A stretch of DNA of 60,029 nucleotides from Deltaproteobacteria bacterium. GTDB lineage: Bacteria; Desulfobacterota; Desulfarculia; Adiutricales; JAFDHD01. The position numbers and the translations under genes were made by a program. The stretch lies in NCBI GenBank assembly GCA_019306365.1, contig JAFDLS010000001.1:1-60029 (forward strand), given 5' to 3'. This document shows, in pieces, positions 7,946 to 22,584 of the stretch. Within the stretch, counting starts at the first letter, position 1. Every line of letters starts with the position of its first letter. The notes under the pieces are model-generated. The model was not told the origin of the DNA, ran no database searches, and was given only the letters and a program-made list of their open reading frames with translations.

Positions 7946-8212
7946 TTATTCAGGTGGGTCTTTTATCAGCCCTAGCTTCATTTTAACGCCAATGGATTTA
8001 TATTTCTCCACCTCAATGAGCTGTTTCAGGTTTTCAACCCTTGAGATGTCGTCCATGGAATACTGGCGACGATTAGTATCGGTGCGTTGAGGTTGAAGAT
8101 ATTCACTGAACTCTTTTTCCCAATACCTAAGGGTTGTCTTTTTTACACCGGTTAGCGTTGACACCTGATCTATATTTAATAATACCCTTTGCATTACCTC
8201 ATTGGTTTTCAT
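7946..8212 (-). CDS. MerR-family helix-turn-helix transcriptional regulator (short)
   Basis: 88 aa. LLNIDQVSTLTGVKKTTLRYWEKEF ... R..N.RRQY matches the MerR HTH signature. Confidence 0.7.
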   Translation of the reverse strand: MKTNEVMQRVLLNIDQVSTLTGVKKTTLRYWEKEFSEYLQPQRTDTNRRQYSMDDISRVENLKQLIEVEKYKSIGVKMKLGLIKDPPE

Positions 8213-8505
8213 GAGTTCTCCCCTGGCTGATCAGTTTCCACATAAACAATACAACAAGCCAACATGCGCTCCTCTAATTGTTTTATCGGCAGCTTTTTAA
8301 AAAAGTTTAATAAAACTTGAACAAAAAAGCAAATATAAATATCATCTTTCAGTTCCTTCAGAACAGAGATACAATGTTTCTTTATCTTATCTATACTCTC
8401 GGCCAAGGCAGATAAAATCTTTAACAATATTTTTAAAGCAGAGTCGATGTTTCCTAAAACTGTATAGCACCCTAATTTTAAAAGCTTCTTACAGGAGGTC
8501 ATGCT

Positions 8506-8778
8506 TTGGATGAATTCTGCCAAAAATGCGGACGGACCCTAAAGCCAGAAGAACTTCAGTATGGAGTCAAAATCGAGTTAACTTCCCTCTTTCATGGCTG
8601 CCTTGAAGAAGTCGATGGCGACATTGATCAGGAAATTGAGCGGCTAATCGAAATTGTCAGCCGGCAGGACCCTGAGGAAGCGGAAAAAGACGTGGCGCAG
8701 ACCATTTATCTGGTTATTTGCCGGTCCTGCCGCAATCAACTGGTCAAGGAGTGGGATATAAAAAGGCGGGTTCACTAG
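8506..8778 (+). CDS. zinc-ribbon hypothetical protein
   Basis: 90 aa with two CxxC pairs (CQKCG, CRSCR). TTG start 7 nt after AGGAGG. No family recognised. Confidence 0.5.
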   Translation: MDEFCQKCGRTLKPEELQYGVKIELTSLFHGCLEEVDGDIDQEIERLIEIVSRQDPEEAEKDVAQTIYLVICRSCRNQLVKEWDIKRRVH

Positions 8779-9100: not shown

Positions 9101-10150
9101 TTAATCCCTGAACACCACCAACCAGTCGTCGATACCGATGCCTGGAGTTTCTACTTCATGGGCTGAGTAGAACTGAGTCAGAACTTGATGAACGTCATCC
9201 TTTGACTTTCCCTCAAGCATTGATTCAAGGCGGCTAACGCCCTCATCAGGGTAACAGAAAAAATCACCGGTAATGGATACGTTCGCGAAGCGCCCTTCAC
9301 GATCTTCGTAACTGGTCCGGATAAGCCCGCCAGTCGCTTTATGCATTCTCTCAACTACCTTGATACCGGCCCGTATCCTGACTTCCCGATCTGAGATTTT
9401 TCTCCCTTTCCGGTAGAGCCAATCGCCGCTCAGCATCCAGCCGCCCAATTCGTCAATTTTGGATTGAAGCTCGCTGTCTATCCCGCGAGGTGTGAGGGAG
9501 CCGAGTAATGGTTTAAACTCTTCAATCATAATATTGTTCAAGCTCGCCTCATCCCATGCGGACGCCCTGGTTTCCCCTAGTTCTCGTCGAATAGTAGTCA
9601 AATTTTCTTCCATGGTTTTATGGACCTTGTCACGGAACTTCTCATCAGGCACCTTAAGAACGCGCGACATCATTTCATAGTTGAAATCCAGTATGAGATT
9701 GCCGACAAAAACAAGACAGTCCCCTATCTCGCCCACACCGGTGCCTGAAATCTTGCGCGCGTTCACTATGACGTCATTTACGGGCTTAAATTCAGCCTGA
9801 ATGCCTATACGGCGATACGTATTGACAACCGGGCCGAGGAATTTCCTGTAAAAAGAGTCCTTGCTCAAAGGAACGACAGGGTTGTCCGGGTGGATGATCA
9901 GCTGGAAAAACAGCTGGTTCCCATCAAGGTAAACGGTTCCGCCCCCGACCTCCCGCCTGAAAATCGGGATATGACGCGTCTGGCAGAAATCAAGATCCAC
10001 TTCCTGGTCAAGCCCCTGATGGTAACCGGCGCAGACATAAGGACTGGCCGGTGAAAGCAGCGCCAGCGCTTCACGCCCCATTCTGGCCAGGGCATGATAA
10101 ATAAGCTGGGATTCCTGCCAGGACACCTTGCCTAAATTATATAGATACAA
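9101..10150 (-). CDS. lipoate-protein ligase family protein (LplA-like, with C-terminal extension)
   Basis: 349 aa. The N-terminal two thirds resemble the BPL/LplA/LipB catalytic fold (RREVGGGTVYLD, ...KISGTG). The start is apparently TTG. Confidence 0.7.
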   Translation of the reverse strand: MYLYNLGKVSWQESQLIYHALARMGREALALLSPASPYVCAGYHQGLDQEVDLDFCQTRHIPIFRREVGGGTVYLDGNQLFFQLIIHPDNPVVPLSKDSFYRKFLGPVVNTYRRIGIQAEFKPVNDVIVNARKISGTGVGEIGDCLVFVGNLILDFNYEMMSRVLKVPDEKFRDKVHKTMEENLTTIRRELGETRASAWDEASLNNIMIEEFKPLLGSLTPRGIDSELQSKIDELGGWMLSGDWLYRKGRKISDREVRIRAGIKVVERMHKATGGLIRTSYEDREGRFANVSITGDFFCYPDEGVSRLESMLEGKSKDDVHQVLTQFYSAHEVETPGIGIDDWLVVFRD

Positions 10151-10190
10151 ATTCTCGTCTCCAGGTATTATTTAAAATATGGAGGAGTTC

Positions 10191-11378
10191 CTATGAGTCA
10201 AGCGCGCGGTAAACAAGCTCGGTGATGTCCAGGACTTCGAGCGAAATTTGGTTCCGCCTGACGTAAGTGGTCATGGTCCTGACGCATTGCTGGCAAGCGG
10301 TGACCACCGCCTGCGCCCCTGTTTCCATGATTTCATCGATTTTCTGTTTGGCGATCTCCTCAGAAAGCCCGGAGTCAATCATCTCCAGGTTGCCGCCGCC
10401 GCCGCAGCAACGGCAGTTTTCTCGATTAGCCTCAAGTTCAATAAAATTTACTCCAGGGATGGCCTTGAGGACTTCCCTTGGCTCGTCAAAAATACGGGCT
10501 CCTCGGCCCAGATCGCAAGGGTCATGGTAGGTCACGGTTAAGTTAAGTTCTTTAAGAGGGAGCCGTCCTTCCTTGACCAGCCGGTATAAAAACTCCGTGC
10601 TGTGGACAATTTCGAACTCAGCATGGTAAAACTCACGCCACATTTGATAACAGGTAGGACAGGCGCATACAACTTTAGAGGCTTTTTTTTGCCGCACCGC
10701 GTCAATGTTGTGCTCAATAAACTGCGGCATCAGACCCTTCTGACCTGATCCCAGAAGCGGAAAGCCGCAGCACCATTCTGCCTCGCCGAGCAATGTAAAA
10801 TCAACTTCCGCCGCTTCAAATATTGAGGACAGATTGATTGGAATCTTTTGGGCCAGGGGGAAGTAGGAAGCCACACAACCGGTAAAATAGACGACCTCGG
10901 CTTGTTCCTTGATAAAACCGTGATCCGGAGGCTCGTCCATGTCCTCCACCCAATCGGCCCGCTCTTCATTCTCCTCATTAAAGACGTTGTGGCTTTCTAA
11001 CAAATTTTCTCGAATAAGATCGACCTTTTCAGGATATGAGCCGGAGTTCACCAAATCCTGGCGAATCGAAAGCCACAGGACTTTAAGATGAATACCTACC
11101 GGGCAGATCTCCTGGCAGTTCCCACACAAAGTGCAGCGAAAAACCGTTTCACTGAACTGATCCAGGGCCTCAGAGGAAATCTGCTTTCGGCCAAAGAGCC
11201 TTGTGAGCAGGCCCGATCTTTTCCTTAAAACTTCCTTCAGTCCCTTAATGCGATAGACACCGGACAGATGCCCATCCTGAGAGGCCGAAACCGCCGGACA
11301 AACATCAGCGCACAGGCGGCATTTGGTGCAAGCCTCCATCTGAATCAGCTGCCAGAGGTTGTAATCCTGATGAGCCAT
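10191..11378 (-). CDS. HdrD/TmcB/DsrK-like iron-sulfur protein with two CCG domains
   Basis: 395 aa with two ferredoxin motifs (CTKCRLCADVCP, CTLCGNCQEICP) and two CCG motifs (EWCCGFP, CRCCGGGG). Confidence 0.85.
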   Translation of the reverse strand: MAHQDYNLWQLIQMEACTKCRLCADVCPAVSASQDGHLSGVYRIKGLKEVLRKRSGLLTRLFGRKQISSEALDQFSETVFRCTLCGNCQEICPVGIHLKVLWLSIRQDLVNSGSYPEKVDLIRENLLESHNVFNEENEERADWVEDMDEPPDHGFIKEQAEVVYFTGCVASYFPLAQKIPINLSSIFEAAEVDFTLLGEAEWCCGFPLLGSGQKGLMPQFIEHNIDAVRQKKASKVVCACPTCYQMWREFYHAEFEIVHSTEFLYRLVKEGRLPLKELNLTVTYHDPCDLGRGARIFDEPREVLKAIPGVNFIELEANRENCRCCGGGGNLEMIDSGLSEEIAKQKIDEIMETGAQAVVTACQQCVRTMTTYVRRNQISLEVLDITELVYRALDS

Positions 11379-11379
11379 C

Positions 11380-11802
11380 TCAAGTGGTTTTATACTTCTC
11401 GATATCAGCCAGAAGCCACTCTTTGACGGCCTCCGGTCCCTTGATCAAATTATCGAGCTCCGCCATATCATCAGGCTTGATTTTGTACATCCAGCCCTGA
11501 CCGTAACAATCCTCATTAATGAGCGTCGGTTTTGTTTCCAGATCCTGGTTGGAACTGATCAATTCACCGTTCACCGGGGCGAAAACCTTGCCCAGCCATT
11601 TCCCTGATTCCACTTTGGCGAACTTTTTCCCTGCTTTTAGTTTTTTTCCTTCAGCGGGAAGCTGAATATAGACGACCAGCCCGGCCATTTGCTGGGCAAA
11701 ATCATCCATACCCATGACCAGATAATCGTCTTCTTTTTTAATCCAGAAGTGACCTTCCTGATAGTACAAATCATCCGGTAAATTATATCCTTCGAGTTCC
11801 AT
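11380..11802 (-). CDS. glycine-cleavage H-protein-like lipoyl carrier protein
   Basis: 140 aa. It aligns with GcvH, and the lipoyl-lysine context is kept (KVESGKWLGKVFAPVNGEL versus AESVKAASDIYAPVSGEI in E. coli GcvH). RBS AAGGAGGAA. Confidence 0.8.
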   Translation of the reverse strand: MELEGYNLPDDLYYQEGHFWIKKEDDYLVMGMDDFAQQMAGLVVYIQLPAEGKKLKAGKKFAKVESGKWLGKVFAPVNGELISSNQDLETKPTLINEDCYGQGWMYKIKPDDMAELDNLIKGPEAVKEWLLADIEKYKTT

Positions 11803-11827
11803 TATTATTCCTCCTTAACCTAAGGGG

Positions 11828-13609
11828 TTATTTCTTTTCATGCGTCATAACCGCATTGATAACCACGGAAACCGGGGCCATAATAATGTGAAGCATCCGG
11901 CTGAACGGCAGATAAGCGATGAAAATCCCGGTTAGTATAGCGTGAAAATACCAGGAGTATACATACGCCGTGGTTGAACCAAACCCATCCGGCATCAAAC
12001 GGCTGATGGTATTACCTGCAAAAGCGTACCCCGCTCCCGCCGGGCTGCCCGTCATGGTAATACGGTTAGCCTCCAGGAAAAACCCGCTGATTATCAGGAA
12101 ACCCATCAAGGCCAGGGCAAACCAATCAGGCCCGGGCAAACCGGGAATTTTTTCAGATCGCTTTACCAGGCGGCGCAAGACAGCCAGAACTACGCCCAGG
12201 ATAACCAGAACGCCCGTTAAATCGAACAGGAACGCGGTAAGAGCATGATTGTTGTCCAGCATCATCCAGCTCACAGGCCATCTGCCCGCTATCTCTGAAA
12301 AGATAAGCGCGACCATGCCCCATAAGAACCTAAAAACAAAAGGCAGAAAAATCAGGCTGTGGATTAGCCAGCGAGTAAAGTTCTGCCTGAAAAGTTTTCG
12401 AGCGAGCAGCGCGTCCAGGAATAAAACCTTGAAAATTGTCAGCAGCTTAAATGAAAACAAGATCTTCAGGAAGCCAGAGACCGCTTTCAGAATTCTGCCT
12501 TTTGACTCCGCGTTCCTGTTTTTCAAAGAAGCCGCGCCTGCCCAAATAGAAATCAGGCTCAAGACTCCGATTAAAAACACAACCAGAGAAAGCCCGGTGA
12601 TAGTGTTCCTGACTGAAAAGCCGGACGCGTGGCAAGGTACGCAAATTAGACTTTTAGAAGGTAAAATCGAGGCGGCCGCGCCAACCGCGTTTTCTTTCCG
12701 GTGACAACTTCCGCAGGCAGCCTCGTCGCTGGCCGATACCAGATTATGAATTTGACTCACAGCCCCGGGCTCGCGGTCCGGCTGCGTTTGAACCCAATCG
12801 GACTCAAGGTCTCGAACCGGAGTTATATCCGAAAGGTGGCAGGCTTCACAGCGAATCTTCAGATGAACAGCCGTGTCAACAGAGGCTTCATGCGATTGAT
12901 GACACTTGAGGCATTTCTCGGGTTTCTGATCTGAATGAAGGTATTGAAATGAATCAGGATGGCATTCCAGACACGTCAAGCTGCCGTGCGAGGACGCTTT
13001 AAGCCCAGCCGTATCGATCTTAACGGCTTTCACGCTCCCGTCTTTTTCCTGGCCGTGACAGTGAAGGCATACCGCGGAAACTTTGGGGTTTTGATAATCA
13101 AGAGCCCGGTGACAGGCCAGGCAGGCTTCATCCTCTTGTGCAGGCTCAGGCAGGGTAGTTTGTATTTCATGACACGCGCCGCATTGAGTGTTCAGCGGTT
13201 TACCGGGATCAAACCTGTCTCCTGCTTCGAGCTTGAGGGCCCGGCTCAACTGGTAGTGAGGGTCATGGCAGCTTAGACAATACTCATAGTCCTCACCCTC
13301 ACTGACCTTCCGCTCCCCGTGGATACCCTTTTTCAAATCTTCAATAATGTCATCGTGGCAGGCTGAACATTTCTCAGCGCTAAAAAAATCCTTGAGACTT
13401 CTGTTGACATTAGCTGAATTTGGATGAAGCTTCTGATCTTGAATATCGCCGTGGCAATCAAGACAGGAAAATTGACCGTGGATCGAGGCGTGAAACTGTC
13501 CGGTATCAATGAACCAGGAAGCCTCACTAACAGGATATCCGGCCAGAAGAAAAACCAGCGGTAAAATAAAAAACGTCAGGTTTTTCATCGATGCGATTCT
13601 TTTGGGCAC
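11828..13609 (-). CDS. multihaem cytochrome c (11 CxxCH) fused to a NarI/DsrM/TmcC-type membrane cytochrome b domain
   Basis: 593 aa. A signal-peptide-like N-terminus is followed by 11 CxxCH motifs in the first ~330 aa, then a polytopic hydrophobic C-terminal half with His-containing helices (RWLIHSLIFLPF, WYFHAILTG). An alternative ATG start at 13588 gives MKNLTFF. Confidence 0.8.
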   Translation of the reverse strand: MPKRIASMKNLTFFILPLVFLLAGYPVSEASWFIDTGQFHASIHGQFSCLDCHGDIQDQKLHPNSANVNRSLKDFFSAEKCSACHDDIIEDLKKGIHGERKVSEGEDYEYCLSCHDPHYQLSRALKLEAGDRFDPGKPLNTQCGACHEIQTTLPEPAQEDEACLACHRALDYQNPKVSAVCLHCHGQEKDGSVKAVKIDTAGLKASSHGSLTCLECHPDSFQYLHSDQKPEKCLKCHQSHEASVDTAVHLKIRCEACHLSDITPVRDLESDWVQTQPDREPGAVSQIHNLVSASDEAACGSCHRKENAVGAAASILPSKSLICVPCHASGFSVRNTITGLSLVVFLIGVLSLISIWAGAASLKNRNAESKGRILKAVSGFLKILFSFKLLTIFKVLFLDALLARKLFRQNFTRWLIHSLIFLPFVFRFLWGMVALIFSEIAGRWPVSWMMLDNNHALTAFLFDLTGVLVILGVVLAVLRRLVKRSEKIPGLPGPDWFALALMGFLIISGFFLEANRITMTGSPAGAGYAFAGNTISRLMPDGFGSTTAYVYSWYFHAILTGIFIAYLPFSRMLHIIMAPVSVVINAVMTHEKK

Positions 13610-13619
13610 TGCTTGCCTG

Positions 13620-14990
13620 TTAACTTTTAGGTAAATATAGCGCCCAGCCTAAAGCATCCTGAGCGGCCATGGCTATTGACTCAGAATAAGTAGGATGCAC
13701 CGGAATGGATCGGGCCAGTTCCTCAGCCGTGCACTCCAGCTGCATGGCCAAAACAGCTCCCCAGATCATTTCGGTGGCGCGGCCGCCGACGATATGAACA
13801 CCCAGAATATCTCCATATTCAGCGTCAGATACGATTTTTACCGCTCCATCCAGTTCACCATAGGACATGGCCAATCCGTTTATGGAAAGGGGGAAGTCGC
13901 CAGTTTCGACCTCATGTCCCTTGTCCTCCGCCTCTTCTTCCGAAAGTCCCACCGCGCCTACTTCAGGAATGGTGAAAATTCCGCGAGGCACAAGATTAAA
14001 AGGAAAAACAGCCGGAGTTCCCATGGCGTTTTCCGACGCGGTGATACCCATAGCCGTGGCGGCATGACTGAGCATCCAGCCGCCAATCACGTCTCCTATG
14101 GCATAAATTCCCTCGGCGCTGGTTTGAAGATTTTCGTTCACTTCAATAAAGCCGCCGTCATCCAGTTTAACACCGGCTTGATCGAGTCCCAGGTCTTTTG
14201 TATTCGGCTTTCGGCTTGAGACCAGCACCTTATCTACAGCAATGTTTTGATCCTTGGAACCGGCGAGGCTGATTTCAAAACCTTTCTTCGCCTTCTTGAC
14301 TGATTGAAGTTCCGCCCGTGTAAGGATTTCTACGCCCTTTTCCCTGAGAACCTGCGCCACGCGCTGGCTTGTATCGCCGTCTTCCTTCGATAATATTCTG
14401 GCGGACCCGGTAACCAGATATACTTTTGAGCCGAAGGCGTTAAATAAGGCGGCCATTTCCACCGCCATGGCCTCAGCTCCATCAACCAGGACCGAACCGG
14501 GAACCTTCTTCATTTCGAAGACCTGATCAGTAGTCATGGCGGCCTTATCCAGTCCCTCAATCTCAGGCATGGCCACAGACGACCCGGTGGCGATAATTAT
14601 TTTCTTTGCCTCCAGAGTCTTTCCCTCAACATCCACTTCATGAGGGCTCTTCAAGGCGCCTCGCCCCTCAATAACCTCGATGCCATTGTTAGCCAAAAGA
14701 CCGCCCATGCCCATGCGAATGTCGCCGGCTATGCCATTCTTCCGCTCTACGATGGTACTGAGGTCAAACCCATCGACCTTGGCCTTGATTCCAAATTCAC
14801 CGGCGTTTTTTATCATCTCGTTCAAGTACACAGCCCGGAGCCAAATCTTCGAAGGAATACACCCTCGGTTAACACAGACCCCACCCATTTCAAAAGACTC
14901 AACCAAGGCTACCTGCCCCCCTAATTGAGCCGCGCGTATACCCGCTGCGTATCCACCTGGACCACCACCGATCACAACAACGTCATACAT
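13620..14990 (-). CDS. lpdA: dihydrolipoyl dehydrogenase (E3)
   Basis: 456 aa with FAD motif GGGPGGY, the redox disulfide GGVCVNRGCIPSK and a C-terminal HPT..E interface motif. Confidence 0.9.
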   Translation of the reverse strand: MYDVVVIGGGPGGYAAGIRAAQLGGQVALVESFEMGGVCVNRGCIPSKIWLRAVYLNEMIKNAGEFGIKAKVDGFDLSTIVERKNGIAGDIRMGMGGLLANNGIEVIEGRGALKSPHEVDVEGKTLEAKKIIIATGSSVAMPEIEGLDKAAMTTDQVFEMKKVPGSVLVDGAEAMAVEMAALFNAFGSKVYLVTGSARILSKEDGDTSQRVAQVLREKGVEILTRAELQSVKKAKKGFEISLAGSKDQNIAVDKVLVSSRKPNTKDLGLDQAGVKLDDGGFIEVNENLQTSAEGIYAIGDVIGGWMLSHAATAMGITASENAMGTPAVFPFNLVPRGIFTIPEVGAVGLSEEEAEDKGHEVETGDFPLSINGLAMSYGELDGAVKIVSDAEYGDILGVHIVGGRATEMIWGAVLAMQLECTAEELARSIPVHPTYSESIAMAAQDALGWALYLPKS

Positions 14991-15072
14991 TTAGTTACCT
15001 CTTTTATTAAAATTAATTTTATATGCTGCGTGTCTGGAATAAAGGTTCCCCGCAAAACGAAATAACCCGATT

Positions 15073-16077
15073 CTAAACTTGGTTGATAATAAAAAGACAT
15101 TTCTCGGACGCCCGCCGCAGCGCCTCATGCAGGTCAACCACGTATGGACCATGAATATTAAGTTTTATGGTCAGCCTTTCCTCTTTCCCCTGGCTGATCT
15201 CACGCTCCCCGTCGAGAGCGATGACGGTCGGTCCAACTGGAAGCGAAAGCTCTTCATCCACCTCAAAGAGCCGAAAAGATTCGATAGGCACCCAGGGTAT
15301 CAGGCCCGGCGCTATAGGAGCCCTGACCTTCTTTTCCCCGGGCCCAACTTTTATATATAAACCCTGGCGGGCATTTAAAGGCAGACGGCACAGAGCCCCT
15401 CCCAGGGAAGAAATACCGATGTTCCCGGGGTCTGATCGAGTAAGAAAGATCTCTTTAATGGTAGACACGTCCCAGATGGCCCTTGAGGCTATAAAACTGG
15501 ACGTCGAAACGACCACGTCAACCAAGGCAATGTCTAAAAGCTCTGAATCGCGCCAGATCTCCAACCGAGGCATCTGCGATACGACCTGATCCAAATTTGC
15601 TTTGTTCAAAGCCACAACACCGGCCGCGATTCCAGCCAGAGTTCCTTCGACCATGCAGGAAAAGACATTATTTGTCCCGGTGGCAATGGAAAGAAGAGGC
15701 GTTTCTCCACTGGTCTTGGCCACAACGCGGTTGGTTCCGTCACCGCCCAGAACAACAACACAGCCCGTGTCCATTTCACTTAGTATCCCGGCCGCGCGAG
15801 TGGAGTCGTCTTGAGTGCCTTCCGGAACCATGTCAAGAAAAGAGACGTTAAGAGAGAGATTGAGGTTTTCCAGGGCTCGCTGACCGATGCCATAATAGTC
15901 AGGCATAAGAAAAACGTCCTCTACCCCGGTGGAATCCAGGCCCAAAAGAACTCTTTTAACGATGTTGACTTTTTCCCTGTTGGAAAAGACCGAACCGTAG
16001 GCCACTAATCTTCGGATGTCTTTTCCGGAAGCTGGATTGGCGATAATTCCCACTGATCCCAATTGAGTATCCTCCAA
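15073..16077 (-). CDS. acoX: AcoX-like ATP-NAD kinase family protein
   Basis: 334 aa. GIIANPASGKD and the GGDGT motif indicate the NAD kinase/diacylglycerol kinase fold. The position beside acetoin-type E1/E2/E3 genes matches known acoX context. The start is ambiguous, with TTG at 16077 or 16062. Confidence 0.6.
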   Translation of the reverse strand: MEDTQLGSVGIIANPASGKDIRRLVAYGSVFSNREKVNIVKRVLLGLDSTGVEDVFLMPDYYGIGQRALENLNLSLNVSFLDMVPEGTQDDSTRAAGILSEMDTGCVVVLGGDGTNRVVAKTSGETPLLSIATGTNNVFSCMVEGTLAGIAAGVVALNKANLDQVVSQMPRLEIWRDSELLDIALVDVVVSTSSFIASRAIWDVSTIKEIFLTRSDPGNIGISSLGGALCRLPLNARQGLYIKVGPGEKKVRAPIAPGLIPWVPIESFRLFEVDEELSLPVGPTVIALDGEREISQGKEERLTIKLNIHGPYVVDLHEALRRASEKCLFIINQV

Positions 16078-16149
16078 TGCAATAAGAAGCGATTGGCGCG
16101 ATGATATTTGATATAACTATTACAATAGAAACAATCTAATACCTACTCA

Positions 16150-16322
16150 GAGACCTCTGCAAAACTTCGTCCTTTAGCCGAACTCATGAGCGCCGCTTCG
16201 CTGACGTTGCAGCGGCATATGCCAGTCTCAAATTTTAGTTCTCGAAATATTAGTAATATTCCTGCGGGTTAAATTTTCGCCTTCCGCGATTTCAACAAAA
16301 TTACTGGTTTTGCAGAGGTCTC
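16150..16322 (+). mobile_element. MITE-A copy 4 (173 bp)
   Basis: Perfect 16 bp TIRs GAGACCTCTGCAAAAC / GTTTTGCAGAGGTCTC, flanked by direct ACTCA/ACTCA. It lies in the divergent promoter region between acoX and the E1 genes. Confidence 0.9.
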
Positions 16323-16363
16323 ACTCAATAAAATGAAGCCCTTTAGCGATCTTGGTTATTATC

Positions 16364-16388
16364 AGAATTGACGTTGATCGTCAATTCT
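16364..16388. promoter_or_regulatory. perfect palindrome, candidate operator upstream of the E1/E2 operon
   Basis: AGAATTGACG-TTGAT-CGTCAATTCT has 10 bp arms and ends 20 bp upstream of a TTGACA box. Confidence 0.45.
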
Positions 16389-16408
16389 TAATAAAAAAAT
16401 GCAAAGAC

Positions 16409-16440
16409 TTGACAAATCCAGCGCTAACCTATTAGATATT
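16409..16440 (+). promoter_or_regulatory. sigma70-like promoter candidate for the dehydrogenase operon
   Basis: TTGACA at 16409-16414 is followed 16-18 nt later by the AT-rich TATTAGATATT. The exact -10 hexamer is ambiguous. Confidence 0.35.
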
Positions 16441-16545
16441 ATCCGGTCCCCAAAATGTAATTAATGAAACTAATCAACAATACCCTTTCAATTAAAAAGG
16501 TAATCGGTTTAACAGTTCAAACAATAACATAATGAGGAGGGTGTC

Positions 16546-17523
16546 ATGAAACTTAAAAATGATGACTTGATTTTTATGTACAAAACCATGGTACGAACCC
16601 GGAAACTGGATGAGATCACCATCAAGGGTCTTCAAGAGGGTAAAGTGCTTGCGTTTTATCACAGCAGTCAGGGATCTGAAGCTCTGGCAGTTGGCGCCGC
16701 CTCCTTCTTGAGGCCTGACGATTATCTCTGGGCGCATCACCGGGGGCATGGAATCGGGTACATACTCGCCAAAGGGGGATCAGGAAGAGATTTCCTGGCC
16801 GAGCACTACGGCAAGGCCACAGGCAGCTGCCTGGGCGTCTCGGGATTTCACTTCGCCGACCCTGAGAATGGAGCGCTCGGCGCCGCCGGCACGATCGGCT
16901 CCGTTTTTCCCATGTCCCTTGGCTGGGGTCTGGCCGCCAAAAAGCATGGACGGCAGCAGGTAACAATCGCGTGTTTCGGCGACGGCGGATCGAATCGAGG
17001 CACCCTGCATGAGGCCTTCAACCTATCCTCAGTTTGGAAACTGCCTATAGTCTGGATTTGCGACAACAACGGCATGGCCCAGTATACGCCTATTACTGAC
17101 GCCTACGCCAAAGACGATATCGCGGACCTGGCCACGGGTTATGACATACCCGCCGTGGTGGTGGACGGCATGGATATTATAGCCGTTCACGAAGCGGTTC
17201 AAGCCGCCGTTGAAAAAGCTAGGGCCGGCGAAGGTCCTTCCATGATCGAAGCCAAGACCAAACGCTTCCGAGAACATTCCATAGGCAGTCCCGATGTTGT
17301 CCATAACCAACCACGCACGGATGAAGAAATAGCCGAAATGAAAAAACTGGACCCCATTATAACTTTTAAAGCTAAACTGCTGGAGCAAGGTGTATTGACT
17401 AAGGCCGATGTTGAAAAAATCAATAATGACGCCGAAGCCGAGATGGCGGAAATGGACCAGTTTTGCGTAGACAGCCAGATTCCCGATCCATCTATTCTTA
17501 ATACGTTAGTATACGCCGAGTAA
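16546..17523 (+). CDS. thiamine-diphosphate-dependent 2-oxoacid/acetoin dehydrogenase E1 alpha subunit (copy 1)
   Basis: 325 aa with TPP motif GDGGSNRGTLHEAFNLSSVWKLPIVWICDNN. RBS GAGGAGGG. Confidence 0.85.
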   Translation: MKLKNDDLIFMYKTMVRTRKLDEITIKGLQEGKVLAFYHSSQGSEALAVGAASFLRPDDYLWAHHRGHGIGYILAKGGSGRDFLAEHYGKATGSCLGVSGFHFADPENGALGAAGTIGSVFPMSLGWGLAAKKHGRQQVTIACFGDGGSNRGTLHEAFNLSSVWKLPIVWICDNNGMAQYTPITDAYAKDDIADLATGYDIPAVVVDGMDIIAVHEAVQAAVEKARAGEGPSMIEAKTKRFREHSIGSPDVVHNQPRTDEEIAEMKKLDPIITFKAKLLEQGVLTKADVEKINNDAEAEMAEMDQFCVDSQIPDPSILNTLVYAE

Positions 17524-17546: not shown

Positions 17547-18509
17547 ATGAAGCAGACAATATATTTAATGGCGATAAGAGAAGCGCTGGATGAGGAACTT
17601 CAGCGGGATGATAAAGTGTTTATCCTGGGCGAAGACGTTCAGCAAGGCACCTTTGGAACAACCACCGGACTTGTCGACAAATTCGGCCCGGAAAGAATCA
17701 TGGATACTCCTCTGGCGGAAACAGCCGTCGCTGGAGCGGCAATTGGAGCGGCTCAGGCCGGATTCAGGCCCGTGGCGGACATGATGTTCGGTGATTTCAT
17801 GTATATCGCCGGTGATGAGATCATGCTCAAAGCGGCCAAATGGCGTTTTCTGCACGGCGGAAAAGTCAACGTACCCGTGGTGATCATGGCGGCCGTCGGC
17901 GGGGGCATGAAACTCGGCGCCGAACACTCAATGATTCCCGAGGCCATGATCATGCACACTCCGGGACTGAAACTGGCTGTTCCGTCCACACCATACGATG
18001 CCAAAGGCTTATTGAAAACGGCTATCAGGGATGATAACCCGGTGGTTTTTTTCTACCATAAAGGGTTGCTGGGCCTGCCGGGCGAAATCCCGGAGGATGA
18101 ATATTTGATACCCTTTGGCCAGGCTGACGTAAAACGGGAAGGATCAGACGTCACAGTGGTGGCGACTTCCGCCATGGTCCAACAGTCCCTGGCCGTGGCC
18201 GAGCAGATCAAAGACAAGGTCAGTGTTGAAATTGTGGACCCGAGAACGCTTGAACCTTTTGATCTCGACACCATCATTGAATCGGTTAAAAAAACGGGCC
18301 GGGTTGTCATTGTCGACGAGGACACCAAACGCTGTGGCATTACCGCTGAGATTGGGATGCAGATCATGGAAAACGGTTTTGACTATCTCGACGCGCCCAT
18401 TCAAAGAGTCGCTGCCGCTAATATGCCTATCGCGGCTGGATTCATGGAAGAGCATGTTCTTCCTCAACCCAAGAATATCGCCGGCGCCATAGAAGCGGTG
18501 ATGGCTTAA
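17547..18509 (+). CDS. E1 beta subunit (copy 1)
   Basis: 320 aa, typical transketolase-like pyrimidine-binding and C-terminal domains (GEDV..G..F..T.GL...FG..R..DTPL.E). Confidence 0.85.
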   Translation: MKQTIYLMAIREALDEELQRDDKVFILGEDVQQGTFGTTTGLVDKFGPERIMDTPLAETAVAGAAIGAAQAGFRPVADMMFGDFMYIAGDEIMLKAAKWRFLHGGKVNVPVVIMAAVGGGMKLGAEHSMIPEAMIMHTPGLKLAVPSTPYDAKGLLKTAIRDDNPVVFFYHKGLLGLPGEIPEDEYLIPFGQADVKREGSDVTVVATSAMVQQSLAVAEQIKDKVSVEIVDPRTLEPFDLDTIIESVKKTGRVVIVDEDTKRCGITAEIGMQIMENGFDYLDAPIQRVAAANMPIAAGFMEEHVLPQPKNIAGAIEAVMA

Positions 18510-18567: not shown

Positions 18568-19542
18568 GTGGAGCTGACACAGGATCAACTGATAAAACTA
18601 TATACGCTTATGGTTCGCACCCGAAAGTGTGACGAACTTATTGTGAACGCGCTCAAGTCAGGAAAGGCCATAGGTTTTTTTCACAGCGGCCAAGGTTCCG
18701 AAGCCGTGCCAATCGGCGCTTGCACCTTTAACCTAAGAGATGATGATTACCTGTATCCTCACCATCGCGGCCACGGGATAGGGTATATGCTTGCCCGGGG
18801 ATTGTCTCCAAAGCCCTTTGTAGCCAGCCATATGGGCAGAGTAGCTCAAGATGTCGAGGGCCCGACGGCGCGGGAAAGAGGAATACATGGCGGCAGCGGC
18901 ACAATCGGCGCCTCGTTTGTTCTCTCAGCGGGCATGGGCATCACCGCAAAAAAGAATGGAAAAAACCAGATAACGGCCTGCTTTTTTGGGGACGGATCGG
19001 CCAATCGAGGAACACTGCACGAAGCCATGAATCTGGCCTCTGTCTGGAAGCTGCCCATTGTGTGGGTTTGCGAGAATAATCTATACGCACAATATATGCC
19101 TTTGAAGGATTCGATGGCGCGGGAGGACATTGCCGACCTGGCCTCAGGATATAACATGCCTGGCGTTATTGTGGACGGCCAGGACGTGTTAGCCGTTCAT
19201 GAGGCGGTTAAAGCAGCGGTGGACAGGGCGAGAGCCGGTGAGGGACCGTCTCTGGTGGAGTGTAAAACTTATCGCTACCGGGGTCATTCGGAGGGAGGCC
19301 CTGACATCTCTCACTATGAGCCGCGCCCGGCCAAGGAACTGGAAGAGTGGAAAAAGAGAGATCCCATAAAACTCTTCAGAGAGAATCTTCTGCAGCAAGG
19401 TGTTCTCACCGATGCGGATGTGGAAAGAATTGACAAGGAGATCGAGGCGGAAGCCGAAACACTGGAAAAATACGCGGATGAATGTCCAATACCCAAACCT
19501 GAAGACCCGTCGGTCCTGGACAGACTTCTTTACGCAGAATAG
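18568..19542 (+). CDS. E1 alpha subunit (copy 2, paralog)
   Basis: 324 aa with a GTG start after AGAGGAGG. It is collinear with copy 1, and roughly half the residues are identical by eye. The same TPP motif is present. Confidence 0.85.
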   Translation: MELTQDQLIKLYTLMVRTRKCDELIVNALKSGKAIGFFHSGQGSEAVPIGACTFNLRDDDYLYPHHRGHGIGYMLARGLSPKPFVASHMGRVAQDVEGPTARERGIHGGSGTIGASFVLSAGMGITAKKNGKNQITACFFGDGSANRGTLHEAMNLASVWKLPIVWVCENNLYAQYMPLKDSMAREDIADLASGYNMPGVIVDGQDVLAVHEAVKAAVDRARAGEGPSLVECKTYRYRGHSEGGPDISHYEPRPAKELEEWKKRDPIKLFRENLLQQGVLTDADVERIDKEIEAEAETLEKYADECPIPKPEDPSVLDRLLYAE

Positions 19543-19558
19543 CCAAGGAGGTTCACAA

Positions 19559-20521
19559 ATGAAAGAAATACGTTTTGTACAAGCGATAAATGAAGCGCTG
19601 GAAGAGGAGCTGAGCCGGGATGAAAAAGTGTATATCATCGGCGAGGACGTGCAGGCTGGCACCTTTGGCGTTTCCACCGGCCTGGTTCATAAATTCGGTC
19701 CGGAAAGAATAATGGACACACCGCTTTCCGAAACGGTGATCGCCGGAGCCGCTGTAGGTTCGGCCATGACCGGCTATCGTCCGGTGGCTGAATTCATGTT
19801 TGCCGATTTCATGTATGTGGCCGGTGATGAGATTTTCGCCAAAGCGGCCAAATGGCGTTTCATTCATGGAGGAACCGTGGAATTGCCGCTGGTTTTTATG
19901 GCCTCCATGGGGGGGTATGCCAAGCTCGGGGCTGAACATTCCCAGTCCCCGGAATCCATGTTCATGCATACCCCGGGTCTGAAGCTCGTCGTCCCGTCCA
20001 CGCCATACGACGCGAAGGGCTTGATGAAATCGGCTATTCGCGACAACAATCCGGTAGTCTACCTCTTCCACAAAAGGCTGTTGGGACTAAAGGGCGAAAT
20101 CCCGGAGGAAGAATATGTTGTTCCCCTGGGTCAGGCGGATATAAAGCGGGAAGGCACGGATGTAACGGTTGTGGCGACGGGCATGATGGTGCAGTTCGCC
20201 CTGAAAGTGGCGGAAGAACTGAAAGAGAAGGTCAGTGTGGAGGTCATCGACCCACGGACCCTGGAACCGCTTGATATAGATACCATTATAGAATCGGTAA
20301 AAAAGACGGGCCGGGCAATCGTTGTGGACGAGGATACCAAGCGGTGCGGTGTCGCTTCGGAGATCATGGCGCAAATCATGGAGCTTGCCTTTGATTACCT
20401 CGACGCTCCCATTCAAAGGATAGCCGCGGCTAATTATCCGATTCCGGGCGGCTTTATGGAGGATTACGTGCTTCCACAAACCAAGGATATCAAGGCGGCG
20501 ATTGAAGCTATCGCGGACTGA
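19559..20521 (+). CDS. E1 beta subunit (copy 2, paralog)
   Basis: MKEIRFVQAINEAL starts at the ATG at 19559, after AAGGAGG. The tracked start at 19400 would overlap the alpha gene. 320 aa, collinear with beta copy 1. Confidence 0.85.
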   Translation: MKEIRFVQAINEALEEELSRDEKVYIIGEDVQAGTFGVSTGLVHKFGPERIMDTPLSETVIAGAAVGSAMTGYRPVAEFMFADFMYVAGDEIFAKAAKWRFIHGGTVELPLVFMASMGGYAKLGAEHSQSPESMFMHTPGLKLVVPSTPYDAKGLMKSAIRDNNPVVYLFHKRLLGLKGEIPEEEYVVPLGQADIKREGTDVTVVATGMMVQFALKVAEELKEKVSVEVIDPRTLEPLDIDTIIESVKKTGRAIVVDEDTKRCGVASEIMAQIMELAFDYLDAPIQRIAAANYPIPGGFMEDYVLPQTKDIKAAIEAIAD

Positions 20522-20621: not shown

Positions 20622-21893
20622 ATGGAGGAAAAATTGGCAGAAAGCATACACATTCCTAAACTTGGTATGAGCATGAAGGAAGCAACGTTGGTCGAGTGGA
20701 AGTTCAATGAAGGAGACCAAATCGAAAAGGGTGACGTAGTTTTGGTAATTGAAACTGAAAAGACCAAATGGGAGGTCGAAGCTCCCGCCTCCGGCTTGCT
20801 GCATATAGCGGTAGAAATAAACGTCACCGAAAAGGTAGGCGCTGTGGTGGGGATGATCGCCGGCTCCAAGGAAGAGCTGGAAACCATCCAGAAAGATTCC
20901 GGCGCGCCGGCCGTCGCCGTTGCTGAGCCCGCGGCGGCCTCTGCGTCCGCCCCCACGAAAGCCTCGGCCGAAAAAGCTGGTAAGGGTGAACGGATACGTA
21001 TTACCCCTGTGGCGCGAAGATTGGCTGAAGAGAACATGATTGACCTGACCTCTGTAACTGGCAGCGGCCCGGGAGGCAGAATAATCAAGGAAGATATCGA
21101 ACGGGCCATTGAGGCCAAAAAAGCCGCGCCGGAAGCTGCGCCCGCGGAAACGGCGGAAGCCGAAGAATATGACGGCAAGAAAATAAAGGGAAGAATTCCT
21201 CTCAGGGGAATGCGGAAGGCTATCGCCAGCCACATGCACGCCAGCCTGGCTACAGCCGCTCAGCTCACTTCCATGGGCGAACTGGAAATGACCGAGCTGA
21301 AGAAACTCAGGGAGGACCTCCTCAAACAGGAAGAGGCGCTTGGCACCAGGGTTACATACACGGACATTTATGTGCTCGCTATTGCCAAAACCCTCAAACA
21401 GCTGCCCATGGTCAACGCCAGTCTGATTGAAGACGAGGTTATTCTCTGGGACGACATCAACGTCGGGGTGGCCGTGGCCCTGGAAGGAGCTGATGACCTG
21501 GGTGGCGGATTGATTGTGCCCGTGGTTAAAAACGCGGATCGCAAGTCATTGGCGGAAATCAGCAAGGAACTCAAAGGAATAATAAGTAAAGCCAGGGAAG
21601 GCAAACTGATGCCTGACGATGTCTCCGGCGGCACATTTACCCTGACCAATCTTGGAGGGCCGGGAGGCGGCTGGGGATTTGGCACCCCCATTATCAATCA
21701 GCCTCAGTCGGCCATTCTGGGAACCGGGTCCATTGTTGACAGGCCGGTAGTAAAGGACGGTAAGATAGTTATCAGGCCTATGATGCCTTATAGTTTCACC
21801 TTTGATCATCGGGTGATTGACGGTGTTCCGGCTGGCATGTTCATGAGCAGGCTGGCGCAGCTCCTGTCAAACCCGCTGCTCTTGCTGAGTTGA
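20622..21893 (+). CDS. dihydrolipoamide acyltransferase (E2) with a single lipoyl domain
   Basis: 423 aa. It has a lipoyl domain (IETEKTKWEVEAP), an Ala/Pro linker, a subunit-binding domain (ITPVARRLAEE) and a catalytic domain with DHRVIDG. Confidence 0.9.
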   Translation: MEEKLAESIHIPKLGMSMKEATLVEWKFNEGDQIEKGDVVLVIETEKTKWEVEAPASGLLHIAVEINVTEKVGAVVGMIAGSKEELETIQKDSGAPAVAVAEPAAASASAPTKASAEKAGKGERIRITPVARRLAEENMIDLTSVTGSGPGGRIIKEDIERAIEAKKAAPEAAPAETAEAEEYDGKKIKGRIPLRGMRKAIASHMHASLATAAQLTSMGELEMTELKKLREDLLKQEEALGTRVTYTDIYVLAIAKTLKQLPMVNASLIEDEVILWDDINVGVAVALEGADDLGGGLIVPVVKNADRKSLAEISKELKGIISKAREGKLMPDDVSGGTFTLTNLGGPGGGWGFGTPIINQPQSAILGTGSIVDRPVVKDGKIVIRPMMPYSFTFDHRVIDGVPAGMFMSRLAQLLSNPLLLLS

Positions 21894-21909: not shown

Positions 21910-22584
21910 ATGCCTGTTCTAAAAGTCTACAAAATGGGCCTGGCCGATTATGGTCGGGCCTATAAATTTCAGGAAGAACTCCTTCTACAAAGAATTGGAA
22001 GGGAAATTCCGGATTCCCTCCTCTTGCTGGAGCATCCCCCTACGCTTACCATTGGCAAGGAGGGCGATCTCGAAAACCTGCTTGTTTCAGGAAACGAACT
22101 TAAAAAAAGAGGTATAGCCCTTTTCCCGGTGGACAGGGGAGGAAGCATTACCTGGCACGGTCCGGGTCAGCTGGTAGGGTATCCGATCCTTGATCTGAGG
22201 GAAAGAGACCGGGACATTCGTAAGTTTATTGACGCGCTGGAAGAAGTGATTATCAGGACCCTGGCCGATCTGTCCATCCAATCAACCCGGGATGATGAAC
22301 ACGTCGGCGTATGGGTGGGGCAGGAAAAAATCGCCGCTATTGGCGTTAGAATAAATAGGTGGGTGACCAAACACGGCTTTGCCTTAAATGTTAATAATGA
22401 TCTTTCGCATTTTTCTCTGATCAACCCTTGCGGAATAACAGACAGGGGCGTAACCTCAATAGTCAAACTTCTGGGTCGTGACGTGTCCATGGAAACCGTG
22501 ACCGAAAAATTACTGATAAACTTCTCAGATGTTTTTGAATATGAGTTGGACATAGCTGCCAGGTCAACTGACGACCTCTTGTAA
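21910..22584 (+). CDS. lipB: octanoyltransferase LipB
   Basis: 224 aa with the motifs RGG.ITWHGPGQLVGYPI and ...KHG.ALNV...PCG. Confidence 0.85.
   Translation: MPVLKVYKMGLADYGRAYKFQEELLLQRIGREIPDSLLLLEHPPTLTIGKEGDLENLLVSGNELKKRGIALFPVDRGGSITWHGPGQLVGYPILDLRERDRDIRKFIDALEEVIIRTLADLSIQSTRDDEHVGVWVGQEKIAAIGVRINRWVTKHGFALNVNNDLSHFSLINPCGITDRGVTSIVKLLGRDVSMETVTEKLLINFSDVFEYELDIAARSTDDLL

Follow-up and report, generated by a model that had tools for sequence, protein, structure and literature searches.

Among described systems, the closest counterparts of the gene cluster considered here are membrane complexes that combine a NarI-like cytochrome b with an iron-sulfur protein carrying CCG domains. 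In HdrDE of Methanosarcina, the cytochrome b is accompanied by a peripheral protein of ~400 amino acids (aa) with two [4Fe-4S] motifs and two complete CCG motifs, and a cytoplasmic disulfide serves as acceptor or donor. TmcABCD, HmcABCDEF, and DsrMKJOP are likewise transmembrane, and in each of them multihaem cytochrome c in the periplasm, a cytochrome b of NarI type, and a CCG protein in the cytoplasm are joined. A cluster of related design lies in a 60,029-nucleotide (nt) stretch of a Deltaproteobacteria bacterium genome (assembly GCA_019306365.1, contig JAFDLS010000001.1, positions 1 to 60,029), referred to as the window. Its core genes encode an 11-haem cytochrome c fused to a NarI-like cytochrome b (CytCB), a paralogue of the glycine cleavage protein GcvH, an HdrD-type iron-sulfur protein (CCG1), and an LplA-type lipoate-protein ligase, and these almost certainly constitute a conserved four-gene module. 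We propose, with the balance about even, that this module could be a membrane-bound, HdrDE-like thiol/disulfide oxidoreductase, for which the lipoyl group of the dedicated GcvH paralogue would be the substrate and from which electrons would be exported to periplasmic haems or quinone.

The module is HdrDE/Tmc-like in architecture but is a member of none of the HdrDE, Tmc/Hmc/Dsr, or sHdr-LbpA families. Unlike in HdrDE, the cytochrome b of the module shares its polypeptide with a periplasmic domain of 11 c-type haems (three haems in one survey locus, L086) and has only three invariant histidines, and the hosts are bacteria that lack coenzyme M (CoM) and coenzyme B (CoB). A role of the same kind as that of HdrDE would here involve a protein-bound, intramolecular lipoyl disulfide. 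The Tmc, Hmc, and Dsr complexes occur in the same host phylum as the module; however, TmcB, HmcF, and DsrK possess one CCG motif together with a T/GECGH element, whereas CCG1 has two motifs, both complete. In the module, cytochromes c and b are also fused into one polypeptide, homologues of TmcD, DsrJOP, and HmcBCD are absent, and the partner would be a lipoyl protein rather than DsrC. In the sHdr-LbpA systems of Hyphomicrobium, Acidithiobacillus, and the Sulfolobales, the genes for an Hdr-like CCG enzyme are similarly linked to those for a lipoate-binding protein of GcvH type and for a dedicated ligase. The sHdr enzyme is a soluble HdrAB1B2C1C2 assembly without cytochromes that participates in sulfur oxidation, with LbpA thought to carry sulfur, whereas the module is predicted to be membrane-bound and resides in a context of organic-acid catabolism in anaerobes. 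The module loci contain no HdrA- or HdrC-type genes and have a membrane cytochrome as the partner. Searches of the open-access full-text literature yielded no description of the gene set, and an earlier mention elsewhere is possible.

The core genes belong to a unit of six co-directional open reading frames (ORFs) on the minus strand of the window, for which the coordinates and the intergenic gaps of 82, 10, 25, 1, and 40 nt match those in the original prediction. Profile searches agree with the domains that it assigned to all six products (PF02665, CCG, PF01597, and LplA-B_cat, with a weak match for the AcoX-like protein). From the AcoX-like gene to the ligase gene, the unit comprises:

15073..16077, minus strand: AcoX-like protein (weak Pfam matches, NAD_kinase 30.3 bits and DAGK_cat 24.2 bits)
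13620..14990, minus strand: dihydrolipoyl dehydrogenase, E3 (TIGR01350 439.5 bits, cutoff 408.8)
11828..13609, minus strand: CytCB, 11-haem c/NarI-like b fusion, 593 aa (multihaem c families and PF02665)
11380..11802, minus strand: GcvH paralogue, putative lipoyl carrier (PF01597, 1.5e-37)
10191..11378, minus strand: CCG1, HdrD-type iron-sulfur protein, 395 aa (2x[4Fe-4S] and two CCG domains)
9101..10150, minus strand: LplA-type lipoate-protein ligase (LplA-B_cat, 4.7e-35, and a C-terminal LplB-like domain)

Conservation of this arrangement was assessed in a collection holding one genome for each of 185,579 species, in which gene neighbourhoods were retrieved by tblastn with the window proteins. 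A relative of CytCB is encoded at 258 loci, and the best 80 of these are nearly all from Desulfobacterales, Syntrophobacteraceae, Desulfatiglandales, and unclassified metagenome-assembled genomes (MAGs) of Desulfobacterota; in a protein collection, CytCB has at least 244 full-length homologues at ~45% identity. The original prediction was staked beforehand on the H-like gene being conserved beside the cytochrome and CCG genes in other genomes, and this is what the survey returned. Where at least 6.5 kb of downstream flank was available (42 informative loci, with CCG1 called at 55% or more identity to the window protein), the GcvH paralogue and CCG1 lie beside CytCB in 38 loci. Reverse look-ups, three starting from CCG1 matches and three from GcvH matches, recovered the trio in all six cases and the ligase in five. 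The GcvH paralogue immediately precedes CCG1 in 40 of 45 loci, 13 of which have the exact 1-nt gap. Median identities to the window proteins are 69% for the GcvH paralogue, 65% for CCG1, 59% for the ligase, and 42% for CytCB, and the CCG1 members of 44 aligned survey loci are 60-68% identical. One locus, L085, whose CCG1 is 78% identical, reproduces the window layout exactly, with the doubled, divergent E1 operon on one side and a MerR gene downstream. Because of this full synteny and the recurrence of the core in dozens of species, the arrangement is not due to chance.

CCG1 is, by the motif criterion, an HdrD-type protein, in which an N-terminal 2x[4Fe-4S] region is followed by two CX(n)CCGX(n)CXXC motifs. 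Pfam CCG matches it in two stretches (8.6e-35), preceded by Fer4_8 with two ferredoxin-type [4Fe-4S] motifs. The two five-cysteine motifs are complete (C168..C203-C204..C240xxC243 and C288..C324-C325..C362xxC365, at nt 10650-10877 and 10284-10517, respectively), and both are present in 45 of 46 family members in addition to the window protein. Two CCG motifs typify the disulfide-cleaving HdrD and HdrB, in which the two sulfurs of the disulfide are bound by one noncubane cluster each (PMC10861901, PMC13083937), whereas DsrK, TmcB, and HmcF have a single motif and a T/GECGH cysteine (PMC10861901). The designation HdrD/TmcB/DsrK-like, under which the protein was first described, therefore holds for HdrD, on the strength of the two full motifs, and fails for TmcB and DsrK. 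Neither the single-motif pattern nor ECGH is found, and NCBIfam scores are far below cutoffs (116 against 735 for TmcB, 112 against 400 for DsrK, and 85 against 750 for HmcF). Membership of the module in the Tmc or Dsr systems was rejected on both counts.

The nearest relative of CCG1 with a solved structure is EtfD from Mycobacterium (9ojn), both by sequence (E 7.8e-40) and by Foldseek search (TMq 0.72) with an AlphaFold2 model of CCG1 (pLDDT 69.8), followed by LutA and HdrB. EtfD resembles the module in that a NarI-like membrane domain and Fe-S and CCG domains connect the membrane with a redox carrier protein of the cytoplasm, but it passes to menaquinone electrons that come from electron-transfer flavoprotein (ETF) and not from a thiol (PMC13083937), and Syntrophus EMO likewise accepts electrons from ETF (bioRxiv 10.64898/2026.08.18.745454). 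Both are single polypeptides that lack a cytochrome c domain and a lipoyl protein, and their donor carries flavin adenine dinucleotide (FAD). In EtfD, one cysteine of the first CC pair is lost and the clusters are buried, while CCG1 keeps the full Hdr pattern. The initial interpretation had treated the pairing of a CCG protein with a NarI-type cytochrome b as a sign of a thiol/disulfide partner. As EtfD and EMO are fed by ETF, that premise is weakened, and the pairing does not by itself serve as such a sign.

CytCB consists of a signal peptide, a periplasmic 11-haem cytochrome c domain, and a NarI-like cytochrome b domain with five transmembrane (TM) helices. The 11 CXXCH motifs (nt 12629-13465) are invariant across 25 homologues. 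Hydropathy and loop charges predict a NarI-like positive-inside topology with the haem c domain in the periplasm and the C-terminus in the cytoplasm. The earlier assignment to NarI-type cytochromes b agrees with the five predicted helices and with the PF02665 match of the b domain (nt 11831-12601), whose score, at 24.6 bits, only just exceeds the cutoff of 22.9. The haem ligands agree in part. The dihaem pattern of NarI-type proteins comprises five TM helices with four histidines, as a helix II pair 10 residues apart and a helix V pair 18 apart, but no more than three histidines (H417, H556, and H574) are invariant in this part of CytCB. Two of these, H556 and H574 in TM5, align with NarI H187 and H205. 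Helix II has a single histidine, H417, at the cytoplasmic end of TM2, and an invariant arginine at +10 occupies the position of the fourth NarI ligand. The distal haem b site may be altered, or H556 may ligate another haem. The periplasmic domain contains no methionine and has about 10 conserved non-CXXCH histidines for its 11 c haems, the last of which lies 10 residues ahead of TM1. The AlphaFold2 model of CytCB (mean pLDDT 56.7) was unusable for a fold search, as expected for a cofactor-free multihaem protein. At L086 (5988-7184, Ca. Adiutricales MAG GCA_044344285.1), CytCB is only 398 aa long and has three CXXCH motifs with the same b domain, in a cluster that nevertheless reads AcoX-E3-CytCB-GcvH-CCG1-LplA-MerR. 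The haem c wire can therefore differ in length between loci.

The small protein encoded between the cytochrome and CCG1 was said to retain the lipoyl-lysine, and it does: K67 (nt 11602-11604) aligns with the lipoyl-lysine of solved GcvH (1onl, T. thermophilus, the best PDB match) and is conserved without exception in the 57 family members. The fold and the position of this lysine are common to the paralogue and the glycine cleavage H protein, for which the L protein, E3, is the normal reoxidant of the dihydrolipoyl form. The surroundings differ, in that the signature ESGKWLG, invariant in all 57 sequences, replaces the canonical ESVKxxSD. Two further blocks, MGMDDFAQ and DCYGxGW, are present throughout the same 57 sequences. 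The protein exceeds the cutoff of the GcvH subfamily model NF002270 (132 bits against 117) and misses that of the TIGR00527 equivalog (107.6 against 115.85). There is no gcvP or gcvT gene in the window, and neither GcvT nor GcvP was identified among the commonest annotated neighbour families (a search of the loci rather than of whole genomes, with a few small families left unannotated). A canonical glycine-cleavage role was rejected for lack of P and T genes in the window and among these families. At the junction of the two genes in the window, TGA-G-ATG, CCG1 has no Shine-Dalgarno sequence of its own, while the GcvH gene has a strong AAGGAGG; this indicates translational coupling.

A ligase of its own downstream was the other feature ascribed to this carrier, and the gene is conserved 3′ of CCG1 in 23 loci. 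Its product has both the catalytic domain with its lysine and the C-terminal accessory domain that LplA needs for adenylation (Lip_prot_lig_C/LplB, 61 bits), and 20 of 20 members retain the catalytic-lysine motif (R/C)KI(S/A)G. It falls short of the TIGR00545 equivalog (123 against 280). The ligase is probably dedicated to the cluster, with K67 as its predicted site of lipoylation. Six to eight loci, the window not among them, carry in addition a second, sLpl(AB)-like ligase, a geranylgeranyl-reductase-like flavoprotein, and radical S-adenosylmethionine proteins that resemble LipS1 and LipS2 but score slightly below the NCBIfam cutoffs (213.7 against 230 and 215.8 against 270, respectively). 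Going by these matches, the set is the one that accompanies shdr-lbpA clusters (PMC6067878, PMC10332631). These extra lipoate-assembly genes lie downstream of the core at the following positions:

L038, 17364-20960: extra lipoate-assembly genes
L015, 8957-10060: extra lipoate-assembly genes
L030, 18462-19556: extra lipoate-assembly genes
L083, 10275-14722: extra lipoate-assembly genes

In L083, the sLpl(AB)-like ligase is fused to DUF116.

The genes that surround the core were defined by unbiased clustering of all ORFs in 80 loci, with annotation of the frequent families, and they fall into two architectures:

Type A (25 of 42 informative loci), upstream genes: GntR/FCD regulator, TRAP DctPQM, AMP-ligase, Usp, and LarA
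Type A, order from CytCB onwards: CytCB > GlcD-type FAD oxidase > CCG2 > GcvH > CCG1 > LplA
Type B (~12 of 80 loci, plus "bare core" loci): E1a > E1b > E2 > (LipB) > E3 > (AcoX) > CytCB > GcvH > CCG1 > LplA

In a neighbour-joining tree of CytCB, types A and B form coherent clades, and the window groups with L001 in the type-B clade. The trio is kept while the accessory genes swap between the two. E3 lies upstream of CytCB in 10 of the 39 loci with enough upstream sequence, all of them in the type-B clade, and type-A loci have neither E3 nor E2. E3 and the 2-oxoacid dehydrogenase, being confined to one clade, are therefore accessories and not part of the core. The suggestion that electrons derive from 2-oxoacid or acetoin oxidation consequently fits the one clade that has E1, E2, and E3, but most loci have LarA, GlcD, CCG2, and TRAP instead. 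LarA is a nickel-dependent lactate or 2-hydroxyacid racemase, and the commoner partner set is, judging by its genes, one for 2-hydroxyacid (lactate-type) utilisation. CCG2 is ~30% identical to CCG1. Counting CCG cysteines failed as a marker to separate a thiol-reactive CCG1 from a GlcF-like CCG2, both of which keep two full motifs. A rearranged version of type A (GlcD > GcvH > CytCB > CCG2 > CCG1 > LplA) occurs in L047, L055, L066, and L075 (and L070); these loci form their own subclade, in which the GcvH gene stays in the operon, apart from CCG1.

Taken together with the HdrD-type motifs, the linkage of a lipoyl-carrier gene to CCG1 makes it an even bet or slightly better that lipoyl-GcvH would be the redox substrate of CCG1. 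In the proposed mechanism, the ligase would lipoylate K67, and the lipoyl group would then be reduced in the cytoplasm by an enzyme specific to each kind of cluster. E3 could be that enzyme in the clade of the window, drawing on NADH or on dihydrolipoyl-E2 from the neighbouring 2-oxoacid/acetoin dehydrogenase, and a GlcD-type flavoprotein, together with a CCG subunit of its own, may perform the same step in the larger clade. CCG1, presumably attached to the b domain at the cytoplasmic side of the membrane, would oxidise dihydrolipoyl-GcvH at two noncubane [4Fe-4S] clusters. Electrons would proceed through its two cubane clusters to haem b, across the membrane, and along the periplasmic haem c chain to periplasmic cytochromes and/or menaquinone. 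With rather less assurance, it can be suggested that the lipoylated paralogue acts as a dedicated cytoplasmic two-electron dithiol/disulfide carrier, a counterpart of DsrC or of CoM-S-S-CoB that would link soluble dehydrogenases (the E3-linked 2-oxoacid/acetoin dehydrogenase of one clade and the FAD/CCG 2-hydroxyacid dehydrogenase of the other) to a transmembrane wire of haem b and multihaem c.

Flow from the cytoplasm to the periplasm or quinone is favoured because the conserved neighbours are substrate-oxidising enzymes, racemases, and uptake systems, because lipoamide is a good donor for haems and menaquinone, and because EtfD provides a precedent for a protein carrier that feeds such a scaffold. 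The midpoint potential of lipoamide is -0.29 V (PMC6067878). Transfer to menaquinone or c-type haems would therefore, from general knowledge of their potentials, be exergonic. Conceivably, an outward flow to periplasmic cytochromes, assisted by the membrane potential, would suit a syntrophic or cytochrome-cycling metabolism.

Several observations weigh against this proposal. Type-A clusters encode no E3 or E2 to reduce GcvH, which leaves GlcD-CCG2 as the only plausible reductant within the cluster, and electron transfer from lactate (-190 mV) to lipoyl (-290 mV) would be uphill at standard conditions and feasible only at a high lactate-to-pyruvate ratio. Outward flow across a scaffold of NarI type would run down the proton-motive force, albeit in a reaction that is exergonic to begin with. 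Enzymes without a thiol substrate, such as EtfD, EMO, LutA, GlcF, and GlpC, possess CCG domains too, and the two full motifs are not discriminating, since CCG2 has them as well. The fourth histidine of NarI is missing from the b domain. Four of the 42 loci lack GcvH and/or CCG1 near CytCB: in L007, L008, and L024, the cluster stops and gives way to unrelated genes, none of them an alternative partner, and in L074, CCG1 and LplA are kept and GcvH alone is missing. Finally, the hosts are all MAGs, no cultured isolate having been identified among the 88 loci inspected.

Of the alternatives, an electron flow in the opposite direction fares best, although we regard it as unlikely. Periplasmic donors (H2 or formate, via cytochrome c3) or quinol would reduce haems c and b, and electrons would continue through CCG1 and lipoyl-GcvH to E3 and NADH, with CCG1 acting on the lipoyl group as HdrD does on CoM-S-S-CoB. 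For HdrDE, DsrMK, Tmc, and Hmc, the established or supposed direction is towards a cytoplasmic disulfide (PMC10861901). The NarI-type scaffold is generally known to be energy-conserving in that direction, and the large periplasmic multihaem domain would be suited to electron uptake. E3 is, moreover, translationally close to CytCB in the window clade, where its gene lies 10 nt upstream. Aklujkar et al. proposed exactly such a flow, speculatively, for P. carbinolicus, from a membrane complex (Act) to a lipoyl carrier ("LarG") and then to E3 and NAD (PMC3543383, Aklujkar 2012). That proposal shares with ours the idea of a membrane cytochrome complex that exchanges electrons with a GcvH-like lipoyl carrier and E3, but Act is an alternative complex III, the "LarG" genes are merely nearby, and no family-level survey followed. 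Energetics speak against reversal, since electron transfer from menaquinol (-74 mV) to lipoyl (-290 mV) would be strongly endergonic and reduction of NAD+ by H2 gives little driving force for an electrogenic step. The type-A loci do without E3, and the genes nearby encode dehydrogenases that oxidise substrates, a lactate racemase, and transporters for uptake, but no hydrogenase or formate dehydrogenase.

A still less probable reading gives GcvH and the ligase no redox role: they would only supply lipoyl groups to the E2 proteins of near or distant dehydrogenases, in the manner of Bacillus GcvH/LipM/LipL, and CytCB-CCG1 would be a generic acceptor for flavoprotein dehydrogenases such as GlcD-CCG2 (cf. 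EtfD, LutABC, and GlpABC), without redox contact with GcvH. It is general knowledge that GcvH is an obligatory lipoyl relay in some bacteria, and E2, LipB, and the ligase are encoded close together in the window. The window, however, already has LipB, a direct modifier of E2, and GcvH-CCG1(-LplA) is strictly kept at type-A and "bare core" loci that have no lipoyl-dependent enzyme. The nearest structural relatives of CCG1, EtfD and LutA, use no thiol substrate, and GlcD-CCG2, beside which CytCB is encoded, requires an electron outlet. Against this stands the position of the GcvH gene, whose translational coupling is to CCG1 and not to the ligase or E2; a relay protein would have no need to stay between two CCG genes in more than 40 species. 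The residues around the lipoyl-lysine, moreover, form an invariant surface peculiar to the paralogue. It is very improbable that the GcvH paralogue carries sulfur instead of electrons, as proposed for LbpA, and that CCG1-CytCB processes a persulfide or trisulfide bound to its lipoyl group, as DsrMK acts on the DsrC trisulfide. In favour of this reading, the hosts are Desulfobacterota, some loci carry shdr-lbpA-type sLpl(AB), LipS1, LipS2, and GG-reductase-like genes (PMC6067878, PMC10332631), and DsrK chemistry on a trisulfide is established (PMC10861901). Against it, TusA, DsrE, rhodanese, and Dsr are absent from the 30 most frequent neighbour families, the gene context is one of 2-hydroxyacid or 2-oxoacid catabolism, and CCG1 lacks the single-motif and GECGH arrangement of DsrK.

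If lipoyl-GcvH does feed CCG1, a lipoyl-protein would join the recognised respiratory electron carriers as a new one, and as one that is widespread in Desulfobacterota; the role of lipoate would be widened from that of a swinging-arm cofactor to that of a respiratory shuttle, and the sHdr-LbpA precedent would be linked to anaerobic carbon catabolism. Few of the many HdrD-like and CCG proteins, or of the transmembrane cytochrome complexes found in sulfate reducers and syntrophs, have a known physiological partner, and the module offers a concrete candidate. It also bears on the question of how electrons from lactate or 2-oxoacids reach the membrane and periplasm. A small lipoyl protein is, furthermore, a partner that can be made, lipoylated, and reduced in vitro. 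That the module has remained hidden at its 258 loci is a matter of public annotation labels, under which the GcvH paralogue appears as "glycine cleavage system protein H/GcvH", CytCB as "nitrate reductase gamma subunit" or "cytochrome c3 family protein", and CCG1 as "(Fe-S)-binding protein" or "heterodisulfide reductase subunit D". Counts of glycine cleavage, nitrate reductase, and Hdr in MAG-based metabolic reconstructions may be wrong as a result.

Upstream of CytCB, the E3 of the window scores above the equivalog cutoff and has the redox disulfide CVNRGC in its translation, in line with the CxxxxC pattern of such enzymes. The AcoX-like gene is the first of the minus-strand unit, with an uncertain start codon (the Joint Genome Institute (JGI) annotation calls a 288-aa protein), and AcoX homologues lie directly upstream of CytCB or E3 in L001, L015, L030, L041, L067, L085, L086, and L088. 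On the plus strand, the divergent operon of 2-oxoacid/acetoin dehydrogenase type that had been described next to this unit is indeed found, with two E1 alpha/beta pairs, E2, and LipB:

16078..16545, no strand: divergent intergenic region, common to the minus-strand unit and the E1/E2 operon
16546-17523, 17547-18509, 18568-19542, and 19553-20521, plus strand: two tandem E1 alpha/beta pairs (Pfam E1_dh and Transket_pyr/Transketolase_C)
20622..21893, plus strand: E2 dihydrolipoyl acyltransferase (Pfam Biotin_lipoyl, E3_binding, and 2-oxoacid_dh)
21910..22584, plus strand: LipB octanoyltransferase (TIGR00214 177 bits, cutoff 83.55)

The E1 proteins resemble pyruvate dehydrogenase E1 alpha and beta, mostly under the equivalog cutoffs, and a single E2 follows the two pairs. 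Doubled E1 pairs are found in L085 as well, and the NCBIfam models do not separate pyruvate, acetoin, or other substrates. Beyond LipB, in the direction of the divergent operon, are genes for an MFS transporter and then a NifS-like enzyme. The remainder of the window is housekeeping, with no gcvT, gcvP, or dsr gene among its annotated ORFs. The contig is also present in two JGI metagenomes.

The divergent region (16078..16545) holds candidate promoter and operator sequences. A block containing TTGACA is partly conserved in L085, as is a perfect 10-nt palindrome, AGAATTGACG-N5-CGTCAATTCT at 16364-16388, which may be an operator. A perfect 16-nt inverted repeat, GAGACCTCTGCAAAAC / GTTTTGCAGAGGTCTC, lies at 16150-16165 and 16307-16322, with its arms 141 nt apart. 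L085 lacks ~170 nt on the AcoX-proximal side, including the arm at 16150-16165, so this part may represent a small inserted element. No sigma-54 consensus was found in the divergent region, and consensus scans for promoters and terminators did not outperform the same scans of shuffled sequences and are uninformative on co-transcription. At the other end of the minus-strand unit, an 88-aa MerR-family regulator is encoded at 7946-8212, and small ORFs lie at 8209-8523 and 8506-8778. A small MerR-family gene with one or two unannotated small ORFs occurs 3′ of the ligase in L082, L085, and L086 as in the window, and these products may regulate the minus-strand unit.

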